DNA of 64,000 nucleotides from Opitutaceae bacterium (GTDB lineage Bacteria; Verrucomicrobiota; Verrucomicrobiia; Opitutales; Opitutaceae), in assembly GCA_025355125.1 (NCBI GenBank), contig JANXLP010000490.1, positions 49 through 64,048 of the forward strand. Reading direction: 5' to 3'. The notes under the pieces were generated by a model. It was not told the DNA's origin and searched no databases. It saw nothing but the letters and a program-made list of their open reading frames with translations. Numbering within the stretch: the stretch's first letter is position 1; each line of letters starts with the position of its first letter. Shown here in pieces: positions 1 to 8,900 of the stretch. The translations under genes and the position numbers were made by a program.

Positions 1-1064
1 TTGCCGAGATTGACCTTCACGTCGGCGGTCACGGCATCTTTGAACGCGGCAAGCTGGGGCAGCATCGCGAGCACATCCTCGGTCGCTGCGCCGAAATCCA
101 GAAGACACGCGATCTCGCTGACACCCGCAGCGGCGAGCCGGCGGACCAACAGTGCGCAGGTTTCCGGGGGCCCGAGCAGCGCGCGCGTGCCGGCGAAACG
201 GTCGTAGAGAAAATCGGCAAACGCGGCGCGCTCGTTTTCCGGCAGCGCGGCGAAATCGACGTCGCGCCCGCGACTCGCCCCGAGGCCGCGCAACAGGTGC
301 AGGTTTTCGCGGAGATACGCGGTGTAGGGCGCGCGGGTCTTGGCGCGCACCTCGGCGAGGTCGCTCGCGACGAACGTGTGCAGCATCACCGTCACGCGCC
401 CGCTGGCGGGATCGTAGCCGGCGCGCGCGCGGGCGGCGCGGTAGCGGGCAATTTTCTCCGCCAGCTCATCCGGATCTTGATCGAGGAGATGCGTGAGGAG
501 ATGCGCGCCGATTTCACCCGCGCGTTCGAAGCTGCGGGGATTGCCGGCGGCGGTGACCCACAACGGAAGCTCGGGCTGAATCGGCGCAGGCTGCACGCGC
601 ACTTCGACCTCGCGACCGTCGCCGCCCAGCACGCGCATTTTTTCGCCGCGCCATAACCGCCGCGCATCGGCGATGCCGCGGAAGAGTTCATCCTGACGCG
701 CGGCGTAACGCTCCGGCGCGAGGGCAAAGTCGGCGGGATTCCAGCCGGCGGCAAACGACATGCCCGCGCGGCCGTTGGAAAGATTGTCCACCATCGACCA
801 TTCTTCCACGACGCGCAGCACCTGATGAAGCGGGAGCACGCAACTTCCCGCCATGAGCCGCACGGCGCTCGTCTCGCGTGCAAGCGCAGCGTGGAGCGTC
901 GCGGGATTTGGATAGAGTCCGCCGAAATCGGTAAAGTGCCGCTCAGGCAGCCATACGCTGGAAAAATCGTGACGATCCGCAAAACGCGCTGCCTCGAAAA
1001 CCATGCGATAACTGTCGCCGCCGGGAATCGCGGCGCCGTTGAAAAACATGATGCCGAATTGCAG
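1..1064 (-). other. LLM (luciferase-like monooxygenase) domain no. 2, embedded in the PKS module
   Basis: Hand translation: LQFGIMFFNG...FSSVWLPERHF...GGLYPNP...NLSNGRAGMSFAAGWNP...LWVTAAGNPRSFERAGE...ACLLDFGA. Colinear with the LLM domain at 4900-5945; by eye more than half the residues are identical. Confidence 0.75.
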
Positions 1065-5900: not shown

Positions 5901-8900
5901 ACGGTCTCGGTGCCGTTGAAAAACATGAGGCCGAATTGCAGGCGGCCGGAGGGGATCGGTGCGGGAGCGCGGCTCGACGCGAGCGGTGAACGGGCCGCGT
6001 TGGGCAACTCAAGCCAGTGGCGCTCGCGCTGGAAGGGATAGCCGGGCAATGTTGGTTCGGAACGGACGCGCGCACCGGGCGCACGCAGCGCCGCGAAGTC
6101 GAGGGGCGCTCCCGCCACGTAGAGCGCCGCCGCAGCGGTGAGCACTTGCACGGCTTCATCGCGGCCGGGCCGCAGCGTGGGCAGCCACGTCGCGGTGGCG
6201 GCCGTCGGCCATGATTTCTGCGCGAGCGCGGTGAGCACAGGGCGCGGGCCGAGCTCGAGGGCGCAGCGGAAACCCAGGGCGTGCAGCGCGCGGACGCCGT
6301 CGGCGAAACGCACCGTGCCGAGCACGTGCGCGCGCCAGTGCGCCGGGGTGGCGAGATTGGCGTCGGGGCCGAGATTGGAGACGACCGGAATCTGGGGCGC
6401 AGCGAATTTGATGCCCGCGAGCACCCGATCAAAGTCCGCCAACATCGGCGCCATCAGCGGCGAGTGAAACGCGTGCGAAACCGCGAGCGGCTGGCTCTTC
6501 ACTCCCGCCGAGGTGAACGACGCCGCGAGTTCGGCGAGATCGCTCAACGGACCGGCGAGCACGACTTCACCGGGGGCGTTGATGGCGGCGAGCGCGACGT
6601 TGGGACGGCTCGCGATGGAGGCGCGCGCAGCGGGTTCATCGGCAAAAACGGCAAGCATACCACCGCCCGCCGGCAACGCCGCCATCAGGCGGCCGCGCGC
6701 GGCGACAAGTCGTAGTCCGTCCTCGACAGAAAACACGCCCGCGACGACCGCGGCGACGAATTCGCCGACGCTATGGCCCGTGACCGCCGCCGGGCGAATG
6801 CCCCAACTGCGGAAAAGTTCCGATAGGGACCATTCGAAGGCGAACAGCGTGGGCTGCGTAAACTCGGTGCGGCCTAGTTTTTCTGCATCCGGCGTTCCGG
6901 CTGCGGCGTGCATCACGGTCAGCAACGGCGCCGGCAGCAAGGGGTCGAGCACAGCCGCACAACGGTCAAGCGCCGTGCGGAAGGCAGGTTCGCGCGCGTA
7001 GAGTTCCCGACCCATACCGGGGAACTGCGAACCCTGTCCGGTGAAAAGAAAAGCGACCGGTGGCGCGCCGACCGCTTCGGCGGCGGGGGCGGAACGCAGC
7101 GCGGCGGCGAGCGCGGCGGCGGTCGCGCCGACCACGGCACGGCGATGGGCGAAGCCGGTGCGGGTCGCGTTAACTTCTGCACAAACTGCGGGCAGCGAGA
7201 CGTCCGGATGCGCTTCGAGCCAGGTGGCGAACGCGGTGGTAAGTTCGGCGAGCGCGACGGGCGTTTTCGCCGAGAGCGCGAGCAGTTGTGGACTCGGCAG
7301 CGTGGGCGAAGTTGAAACAGGGAGCGATCCCGGCGCTTCCTCGAGGATGATGTGAGCATTGGTCCCAGCGAAACCAAATGAACTCACGCCCGCACGACGT
7401 GGCACGGATTCGGCCGAGCGATTCCAAGGCGTAAATTCGGAGACGACGCGCAACGGCAGCGTGGCCCAGGGCACATGCGGATTCGGTGTGCGGAAGTGCA
7501 GGCTGGCGGGCAGTTCACCGTGGCGCAGCGCGAGCACGACTTTGATGAGGCTGGCGATGCCGGCGGCGGCCTCGAGGTGGCCGAGGTTGGTTTTCACCGA
7601 GCCGAGGAGCAGTGGCGCGGTGACGGGACGGTTTGCGCCGAGCGCGGCGGCAAGGGCGCGCGCCTCGATGGGATCGCCGAGGACAGTGCCGGTGCCGTGA
7701 GCCTCGACGTAGCTGATGTCGGTGGGTTGCATGCGGGCGCGCGTGAGGGCGGCGCGAATGACGTTTTCCTGCGCGGGGCCGTTGGGCGCGGTGAGGCCGT
7801 TGCTGCGGCCGTCCTGATTGACCGCGCTGCCGCGAATTACGGCGAGGATCGGATCGCCGGCGGCGCGCGCGGCGGCGAGGGGTTTCAGGACGACCAGGCC
7901 GCAGCCTTCGGAGCGCACATAGCCATCGGCCTCGGCAGCGAAGGCTTTGCAGCGACCGGCGGCGGCGAGCATCCGCGCTTGGGCGAAATTCACCGCGAGT
8001 GTGGGATCGAGGACGACGTTCACGCCCCCCGCCAGTGCGAGCGAGCACTCGCCGGCGCGCAGTGCGGCGCAGGCCTGATGCACGGCGACAAGCGACGACG
8101 AGCACGCGGTGTCGAGCGCGAGGGCCGGACCGTGAAACCCAAAGAAGTAGGCGAGGCGGCCGGCGGCGGCGCTGGCGGCGTTGCCAGTGCCTCCGTAGGC
8201 GCCGATGCGGGCGAGATCATCGGGCGCGAGCGCGCGGCGCGCGTAGTCGGACGTGCTGAGGCCGACGAACACGCCGGTGTCGCTGCCAGTCAGCGTGGCC
8301 GGATTGAGACCGGCGTGCTCGAGGGCGTGCCACGCCACCTCGAGGAGCAGGCGTTGCTGCGGGTCGAGCGCGGCGGCTTCACGGGGCGCGATGCCGAAAA
8401 ACTCGGCGTCGAAACGGTCGATGCCGTCGAGAAAGCCGCCGTGGCGCGAATTGGTTTTTCCGGGCGTGGCCGCCTCGGGCGCGTAAACCGCATCGATGTC
8501 GAAACGGTCGCGCGGGATTTCGCGGATCGCGTCCACGCCGTTGCGTAACAGTTGCCAGAACGACTCGGCATCGTGGGCTCCGCCAGGAAACCGCAGGCCC
8601 AAACCGATGATGGCGATGGGATCATCGCCCGCGACGAGCGCAGCAGAATCGGCCGAGGCGTCGCCGCGGCCGGTCACGCCAGCGAGGTGCGCGCTCAGGC
8701 GATTGATGTCGGGGAAATCGTAGAGGAGCGTCGGCGGCACCGGACGGCCGAGGTGGTCTTGCAACTCACCGGAAAGGCCGACGACGGTCGCGGAATCCAA
8801 ACCGTAAGCGGAAAACGCTTTTGATGGATCGATGGCTGCGGGCGCGAGGCGAAGTTCGCGCGCCAGCCGCGCACGGAGCCACGCGACGAGATCAGTGGCA

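Follow-up and report, generated by a model that had tools for sequence, protein, structure and literature searches.

What would a lipid-primed assembly line make with two luciferase-like monooxygenase (LLM) domains built into successive polyketide synthase (PKS) modules? The question is raised by the first 11 kb of a 64,000-nucleotide stretch of DNA from an Opitutaceae bacterium (assembly GCA_025355125.1, contig JANXLP010000490.1, positions 49 to 64,048 of the forward strand; hereafter the window, which means the whole stretch analysed), where two adjoining minus-strand genes encode the modules in question. We consider it probable that this gene pair is the lipid-initiation part of a hybrid line of PKS and nonribosomal peptide synthetase (NRPS) modules that makes a lipopeptide, and that its double pairing of an LLM with a ketoreductase (KR) domain yields a tetrahydroxyacyl cap. 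A more specific proposal, for and against which we see an even balance, is that two stacked modules, each extending, alpha-hydroxylating and reducing the chain, build a contiguous C2-C5 tetraol from malonate and O2, with one acyltransferase (AT) serving both modules and without glycolate-type units. In the same proposal, the product belongs to an undescribed class of polyhydroxy-acyl lipopeptides of uncultured Opitutaceae that is also found in an Acidobacteriota lineage.

Architecture of the gene pair and its oxygenase domains

The translated minus strand was scanned with Pfam and NCBIfam. Besides LLM, AT and KR, the domains recognised are fatty acyl-AMP ligase (FAAL), acyl carrier protein (ACP) and ketosynthase (KS), arranged as follows.

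2903..10783, minus strand: gene 1, FAAL-ACP-KS-AT-LLM-KR-ACP, the loading module plus module 1 (translation, Pfam, NCBIfam)
8981..10672, minus strand: FAAL; PF00501 215.8 bits, PF23024 39.5 bits, NCBIfam FAAL models E = 1e-126 to 1e-94
8684..8881, minus strand: loading ACP (Pfam)
7493..8623, minus strand: KS1; PF00109 and PF02801; motifs DTACSSS, EAHGTGT and KTNLGH
6110..7051, minus strand: AT1; PF00698 183.9 bits; motifs GHSVGE and HAFH
4913..5935, minus strand: LLM1; TIGR04020 457.9 bits, PF00296 165 bits
3536..4762, minus strand: KR1, structural and catalytic subdomains; PF21394 and PF08659 187 bits
about 3029..3241, minus strand: ACP1; second PF00550 stretch; GMDS motif
1..2906, minus strand: gene 2, KS-(no AT)-LLM, leaving the window at position 1 (translation, Pfam)
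1665..2792, minus strand: KS2; PF00109 332 bits; motifs DTACSSS, EAHGTGT and KTNVGH
1059..1664, minus strand: KS-AT-type linker and post-AT linker (LPSYPFERTRHW), with the AT cleanly missing; PF16197, PF22621 and PF22336 at aa 423-547
45..1058, minus strand: LLM2, paralogue of LLM1; TIGR04020 446 bits

The open reading frame (ORF) of gene 1 spans 2903-11164 and ends in a stop codon at 2903-2905; translation probably begins at ATG 10783 or GTG 10726, and a purine-rich, GGAG/GAGGGA-like site precedes either codon. The ATG of gene 2 at 2906 overlaps this stop codon (ATGA), which makes the two genes a translationally coupled pair. An earlier note on this DNA, written from the letters alone, had described a lipid-primed line with the order KS-AT-LLM-KR-ACP, followed by a gene reading KS-(no AT)-LLM. 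The FAAL domain of gene 1 bears out the lipid priming, and both domain orders are recovered by the Pfam and NCBIfam matches.

Read in the translation, the KS1 motifs complete its Cys-His-His triad. The triad of KS2 is likewise complete, and KS2 is therefore predicted to elongate the chain. GHSVGE and HAFH are motifs of malonyl-type AT domains, and their presence indicates that AT1 is of this type. It is the sole AT of the two-gene line: tblastn finds three AT domains in the window, the other two of which lie in a second line, and no discrete AT. The linker region of gene 2 (~200 aa) gave no match to PF00698 in Pfam. By the rule that relates KR motifs to stereochemistry, the Trp motif (AGAW) of KR1, together with the absence of an LDD motif, suggests an A-type KR. 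The C-terminal tail of ACP1 looks like a docking region. Between the end of LLM1 and the structural subdomain of the KR (PF21394) lies a gap of only ~50 aa, and Pfam matched no PS-DH domain in gene 1, gene 2 or their orthologues; LLM1 therefore occupies the slot normally held by a dehydratase (DH), where the earlier note had placed it. Class III aminotransferase (PF00202) had no match in gene 1, in gene 2 or in their orthologues at three loci described below (L001, L003 and L068), in scans that detected it elsewhere, namely in an OcfH-like protein and in the proteins P0121 and P0122.

Both LLM domains belong to TIGR04020, the NCBIfam MupA/Atu3671 family of luciferase-like monooxygenases dependent on flavin mononucleotide (FMN). 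Measured against the curated cut-off of 244.45 bits, LLM1 scores 457.9 and LLM2 446.0 bits, and they cover positions 1-341 and 1-339, respectively, of the 341 positions of the model. The profiles named beforehand as a check on the fold, TIGR04020 and PF00296, thus support an LLM/FMN-type domain. The two copies are 60% identical over 346 aa (E = 4e-147) and contain the strings LQFGLMFFNG/LQFGIMFFNG and ACLLDFGAST/ACLLDFGAAT (LLM1/LLM2), in agreement with the colinear paralogy first noticed from these strings. For both domains the nearest solved structure is PDB 6KET, the oxygenase domain of PuwE, at about 46% identity (LLM1, E = 2.4e-108 over about 340 residues; LLM2, E = 7.3e-104 over about 326), and other LLM and luciferase chains in the PDB are matched as well. 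These end-to-end sequence matches to solved structures place LLM1 and LLM2 in the predicted TIM-barrel fold of the LLM enzymes. The family-invariant residues E-R-H align with E-H-H of a luciferase alpha chain (8CBB).

The earlier note had reasoned that a lack of profile support for the fold, or the loss of flavin- and substrate-binding residues, would mark the domains as structural relics. Conservation was assessed over 289 family domains from the loci and proteins fetched, in which 72 columns are at least 93% conserved and serve as a proxy for the site that binds flavin and substrate. LLM2 retains 72/72 of these columns and LLM1 70/72, its differences being the conservative exchanges F->Y and V->I. 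No stop codon or frameshift interrupts either domain. Compared with orthologues, dN/dS amounts to 0.10-0.16 for LLM1 and LLM2 and to 0.086 for KS2, values that are rough, as dS exceeds 1; both LLM domains are nevertheless clearly under purifying selection. Because the conserved residues are kept and selection is purifying, LLM1 and LLM2 are not relics.

The same data bear on the view that the LLM domains are FMN- or F420-dependent reductases or structural spacers, with the alpha-oxygens brought in by glycolate-type extender units. F420-dependent reductases do belong to the LLM superfamily, F420-type LLM models match LLM2 weakly, and F420 enzymes appear among the PDB matches at E = 1e-7 to 1e-10. 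However, the TIGR04020 scores (446-458 bits) stand far above those of the F420-family models (<=88 bits), and the conserved columns and dN/dS values oppose a mere spacer. A contiguous polyol made from methoxymalonyl-ACP units is known from bengamide (PMC6163206), but AT1 carries the malonyl-type HAFH motif, and no FkbH-type (hydroxymalonyl/methoxymalonyl) gene was found among the window ORFs annotated with Pfam. Overall, we regard reductases or spacers combined with glycolate-type units as very improbable. Bengamide-type extender units as the oxygen source were rejected on the last two grounds.

Orthologous loci and the history of the LLM pair

Orthologues were sought in species-representative genomes and then in metagenomes. 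Among the genomes they occur in three Opitutaceae metagenome-assembled genomes (MAGs; L001-L003, 64-69% identity), on two short contigs of one Opitutae MAG (L004/L005, about 80% identity) and in one Solibacteraceae (Acidobacteriota) MAG (L068, 62% identity); the highest identity at any genome locus is 82%, over a short contig. Metagenomes add seven loci: L082-L087 repeat the domain order, and the shorter fragment L081 agrees with it. The arrangement FAAL-ACP-KS-AT-LLM-KR-ACP, followed by KS-LLM-KR-(ACP) and then by an NRPS beginning with condensation (C) and adenylation (A) domains, is present in L001-L003, L068 and L082-L087; the fragments in L004/L005 and L081 are consistent with the tandem LLM architecture. 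These loci also supply the remainder of module 2, which the earlier note had expected beyond position 1: by Pfam, the gene 2 orthologue reads KS-LLM-KR-ACP in L003 (1570 aa) and L068 (1732 aa). NRPS modules composed of C, A and peptidyl carrier protein (PCP) domains stand directly after the gene 2 orthologues. As judged from these loci, the two-gene architecture with its NRPS continuation is a conserved, small family.

A metagenome contig (Ga0134121_10001760, L106) carries a different tandem, FAAL-ACP-KS-AT-LLM-KR-ACP-KS-AT-LLM-KR-ACP, in which the AT is kept in both modules; its LLM domains are 55-56% identical to those of the window.

We also compared the domains in neighbour-joining trees of LLM and KS sequences, using architecture-defined stand-ins in the LLM tree in place of the MupA, MtaG and MelG sequences themselves. 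In the LLM tree, the LLM1-type domains fall into one clade and the LLM2-type domains into its sister. Copies from the window, the Opitutaceae loci and the Solibacteraceae locus are present in both, so the duplication is older than these lineages and both copies have persisted. KS1 groups with FAAL-adjacent KS domains, the OcfJ-like KS included, and KS2 with KS domains that follow LLM-KR modules, among them the first OcfH-like KS.

Conservation of module 2 matters for a further alternative, in which this module does not elongate the chain but acts as the KS0-like half of a bimodule, or in which only one LLM is active, so that a single C2 unit and one or two oxygens would be added. The missing AT of module 2 and the lack of a discrete AT in the window speak for it, as does the tie between trans-AT alpha-hydroxylation and a non-elongating KS0, with an LLM in cis with KS0 in the patellazole system (PMC10952193). 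Yet KS2 retains the full Cys-His-His triad, the HGTGT histidine included, the orthologues give module 2 a KR and an ACP of its own, and the tandem of L106 has an AT in both modules. An AT-less module also has parallels, in the FAAL-adjacent KS-LLM-KR of the occidiofungin-type line and in a KS-KR-ACP module of the second line of the window, both of which stand beside AT-bearing modules. Purifying selection of similar strength on both paralogues argues against one inactive LLM. A non-elongating or half-active pair is therefore unlikely in our judgement.

Embedded LLM domains had been called known but rare. A phmmer search with LLM1 against 1.84 billion cluster representatives (50% identity) revises this, with 1,963 matches at or below E = 1e-30; the best 150 consist almost entirely of multidomain proteins of 1,000-5,000 aa. 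Many of these are 1,100-1,200 aa long, with the LLM at the N-terminal start. This exhaustive search covered whole synthases, whereas a word-indexed protein search listed only proteins <1,000 aa. The architectures that contain an LLM comprise KS-AT-LLM-KR, KS-LLM, LLM-(DH-like)-KR-ACP, aminotransferase-LLM, C-LLM-A and LLM-MbtH. Ralstonia megaplasmids account for 104 of the 192 plasmid records in which tblastn located the LLM domain; the hybrid synthase annotated on these megaplasmids is probably the ralsolamycin synthase. Two proteins with two LLM matches each, P0121 and P0122, were considered as members of the same system and rejected, since in these an aminotransferase-LLM unit of the PuwE type is joined to a second LLM, one that lies within an A domain.

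Proposed chemistry and relation to known lines

We postulate that the two LLM-KR modules act one after the other on the same lipid chain. The FAAL would adenylate a fatty acid and load it onto the first ACP, and KS1 would extend the acyl chain with malonate supplied by AT1. LLM1, using O2 and FMNH2 from a reductase encoded elsewhere, would then hydroxylate the alpha-carbon (C2) of the 3-oxoacyl-ACP, and KR1 would reduce the beta-ketone (C3), giving a 2,3-dihydroxyacyl-ACP. After transfer of the chain to the gene 2 protein, KS2 is predicted to carry out a second elongation; the malonyl group on ACP2 may come from AT1, or a cellular malonyl transferase may stand in for the missing AT. LLM2 and KR2 would repeat alpha-hydroxylation and ketoreduction to give a 2,3,4,5-tetrahydroxyacyl-ACP, from which the first downstream C domain would move the tetrahydroxyacyl group onto an amino acid. 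The product would probably be a cyclic lipopeptide whose N-cap is a fatty acid with a sugar-acid-like head.

Domain order, motif integrity, family membership, selection and conserved synteny are observed features of this line. Alpha-hydroxylation of the beta-ketoacyl-ACP ahead of ketoreduction would carry over from the biochemistry of relatives, and we infer the oxygenation site in both modules, the sharing of the AT and the tetraol product. In vitro, MupA alpha-hydroxylates only an ACP-bound beta-keto thioester, before the KR, the beta-hydroxy substrate being inert, and it requires FMN, NADH and an external flavin reductase (PMC10952193). In puwainaphycin biosynthesis, the embedded oxygenase domain of PuwE is credited with the 2-hydroxy group of the FAAL-primed acyl chain (PMC4219810). 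AT-less modules beside AT-bearing ones, as in the occidiofungin-type line and the second line of the window, suggest that an AT is shared or that a cellular malonyl transferase takes part. Repeated on-line oxygenation, the outcome supposed in the earlier note, remains the best reading, and of the two reactions considered there, alpha-hydroxylation is favoured over oxygen insertion.

The second of these reactions defines a rival outcome: an ester or a shortened chain, and no polyol, would result from a Baeyer-Villiger-type insertion of oxygen or from alpha-hydroxylation with subsequent C-C cleavage. FMN-dependent Baeyer-Villiger enzymes do fall within the LLM superfamily. The LLM enzymes CalD and MndB have, in addition, been proposed to shorten chains by alpha-hydroxylation together with steps of the Baeyer-Villiger type (PMC8739492, a review). 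However, in the window line each LLM is accompanied by a KR and an ACP, and next comes either an elongating KS or a C domain, an order that suits a stable diol, the nearest known line pairs LLM and KR in the same way, and the family members tested biochemically, MupA and OocM, are alpha-hydroxylases. Oxygen insertion or cleavage is accordingly an improbable outcome here.

That nearest line is a close known relative, whereas the earlier note could not map the arrangement to a known pathway. The occidiofungin/burkholdine-type line of Burkholderia (OcfJ-OcfI-OcfH) shares with the window a FAAL-ACP loading unit and a KS, followed by LLM-KR-ACP. Its LLM belongs to the same clade and is 56-58% identical to the window LLMs, and the KS of its LLM-KR-ACP module lacks an AT by Pfam, like module 2 of the window; downstream NRPS modules, a cyclic-peptide ABC exporter and a type II thioesterase are present as well. 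We found these genes on chromosome 3 of Burkholderia lata (L025) and on a replicon of B. arboris (L160), as FAAL-ACP-KS (4.4 kb), LLM-PS-DH-like-KR-ACP (3,324 bp in L025) and a third gene, KS-KR-ACP-KS-AT-ACP-aminotransferase-C-A-PCP-C (13.4 kb). Order and sizes agree with the published ocf table, which lists ocfJ at 4,428 bp, ocfI, annotated as a flavin-dependent monooxygenase, at 3,324 bp and ocfH at 13,410 bp (PMC9494966).

The Burkholderia line has a single LLM module that is split between proteins (KS in OcfJ, LLM-KR-ACP in OcfI), whereas the LLM-KR unit of the window is doubled and module 1 contains an AT. A PS-DH-like segment lies between LLM and KR in Burkholderia, in contrast to the window line, which is without a DH-like segment. 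Furthermore, the Burkholderia line continues with KS-KR and then KS-AT-aminotransferase, which leads to a beta-amino acid, while the window orthologues pass directly to a C domain and leave no room for an aminotransferase. In occidiofungin and burkholdine, the fatty amino acid bears vicinal hydroxyls at C5, C6 and C7, as the succession KS-LLM-KR, KS-KR and KS-AT-aminotransferase would yield. The window line functions like the ocf module, yet it represents a different pathway.

Other known systems are more distant. PuwE (puwainaphycin) and RmyA (ralsolamycin) resemble the window line in that an LLM is embedded in a FAAL-primed cis-AT PKS module, but there the LLM sits after the ACP and is paired with a class III aminotransferase to give a 3-amino-2-hydroxy acyl group, whereas the window LLMs are preceded by the AT or post-AT linker and followed by the KR. 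For RmyA the layout is FAAL-KS-aminotransferase-LLM (PMC4989320). PuwE-type LLMs fall outside the LLM-KR clade in the tree. MupA, after which the family is named, shares membership of TIGR04020 with OocM, CalD and the window LLMs, but MupA, OocM and CalD are free-standing enzymes at the KS-KR-ACP/KS0-ACP junction of trans-AT PKSs, while the window LLMs are covalently embedded. The window line also differs from a trans-AT alpha-hydroxylation bimodule in that module 1 contains its AT in cis, no discrete AT is found in the window, and KS2, with its complete triad, is not a KS0.

The MOX domain of MtaG and MelG (myxothiazol, melithiazol) is an embedded LLM that alpha-hydroxylates a carrier-bound thioester, as cited in PMC11411415. 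The NRPS A domain into which it is inserted belongs to a terminal module, C-A-MOX-A-T-TE, where its action results in the release of glyoxylate and leaves a terminal amide; the window LLMs, by contrast, sit in PKS modules between the KS/AT linker and the KR. NRPS-embedded LLMs with the order C-LLM-A (L059, L060 and L063) form a clade separate from the window LLMs. In five Opitutaceae-type loci (L059, L060, L063, L131 and L147), one KS-AT-LLM-KR module occurs together with an NRPS module whose C and A domains flank an LLM; with this MtaG-like placement, each line contains two LLMs of different clades. Within the Opitutaceae, module 9 of the palmerolide PKS of Candidatus Synoicihabitans palmerolidicus embeds a TIGR04020 LLM beside a KR, as in the window, but this PKS is of the trans-AT macrolide type, has one LLM only and is not lipid-primed. 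Its LLM is proposed to give the vicinal C10-OH/C11-O pair, and the biosynthetic gene cluster includes an ABC transporter and a Band7 protein (PMC8739492).

Several points weigh against the tetraol proposal. Module 2 has no AT, and the window no discrete AT, that would load ACP2. KR2 and ACP2 are known only from the orthologues and not from the window itself, and the gene 2 orthologue of L001 stops after the KR (1415 aa) without an ACP match (region 14194-14972 of L001), which could reflect an assembly frameshift or an ACP encoded in a separate small ORF. The experimental chemistry stems from relatives outside the LLM-KR clade: MupA and OocM act in trans, in bimodules with KS0, and it is by analogy that their reaction is assigned to domains embedded in cis whose identity to the nearest characterised contexts is about 45-60%. 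The LLM superfamily, moreover, holds Baeyer-Villiger oxygenases and F420-dependent reductases besides hydroxylases.

The LLM family and the chemistry of its relatives are already known, and precedents exist for LLM domains inside PKS and NRPS modules and for an LLM beside a KR in a line primed by a FAAL. In a partial coverage of the literature, we did not find a description of two successive LLM-KR modules retained as an ancient pair, of a contiguous tetraol head, or of uncultured Opitutaceae and an Acidobacteriota lineage as hosts. Searches on TIGR04020, tandem LLM modules and tetrahydroxy-acyl lipopeptides gave no account of the arrangement, which, with coverage partial, is weak evidence of novelty. 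The advance would lie in the arrangement and the product, not in the enzyme chemistry. Hydroxymalonyl and methoxymalonyl extender units are the known route to runs of adjacent hydroxyls; if the proposal is true, an alpha-hydroxylating LLM-KR unit can be stacked like an ordinary PKS module to write such runs, which would be useful in engineering and in sequence-based prediction of products. It would also add a new lipopeptide family to the Verrucomicrobiota, from which, to our knowledge, few natural products have been characterised. As a compact cis system, KS-AT-LLM-KR-ACP lends itself to studying the order of alpha-hydroxylation and ketoreduction, so far addressed with trans-acting enzymes only.

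Neighbouring genes and a second assembly line

Next to the gene pair, the following features were assigned.

10827..14345, plus strand: NRPS module, divergent from gene 1, with a TubC-type N-terminal docking domain followed by C-A-PCP (Pfam)
14414..15271, minus strand: weak match to HilA/WelO5-like Fe(II)/2-oxoglutarate dioxygenases; NF041274 106.7 bits (below cut-off), PF22814 26.3 bits
15463..17094, plus strand: cyclic-peptide export ABC transporter; TIGR01194 360.9 bits, cut-off 286
19791..20570, plus strand: type II thioesterase; PF00975 163 bits

The position of the divergent NRPS module is conserved, with counterparts upstream in L001 and L083-L087 (65-70% identity) and in L068 (52%). 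The dioxygenase-like protein may tailor an amino acid. Taken together, the exporter, the type II thioesterase, the dioxygenase-like protein and the divergent NRPS module fit a cyclic lipopeptide. No flavin reductase was seen near the LLM genes, as in the mupirocin cluster.

Alongside the cyclic-peptide ABC exporter, the regions 15463-18070 and 21491-22741 encode a Band7/SPFH protein, a ParA-like ATPase and a DUF697 protein. Single-LLM FAAL-PKS lines elsewhere have related genes upstream: L137 and L140 have the full set of four, and L134 has those for Band7, ParA and DUF697, with no ABC match. These four may form a conserved accessory set. A PotD/PotF-like polyamine-binding protein with an N-terminal extension of ~230 aa (18071-20014, minus strand) and a decarboxylase of the Orn/Arg/DAP type with an N-terminal extension of ~300 aa (23404-25428, plus strand) hint at polyamine metabolism near the cluster.

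GC skew of the plus strand is mostly -0.16 to -0.35 over ~20-64 kb, regardless of gene orientation (-0.08 at 40-42 kb), and +0.01 to +0.16 over 1-10 kb. Given this difference in sign, the LLM gene pair stands apart in composition from the remainder of the window; an inversion, horizontal acquisition or a switch related to replication may be the cause.

The second hybrid NRPS-PKS line is separate from the LLM genes and occupies 40759-63949 on the minus strand plus 38311-40341. NRPS modules lie at 58256-63949 and 54966-58385, followed by the AT-less KS-KR-ACP module at 51739-54969 and a KS-AT-KR-ACP module at 47357-51742. Its last module (40759-47289) has the unusual order KS-AT-KR-DH-ER-ACP and is adjoined by a carbamoyltransferase.

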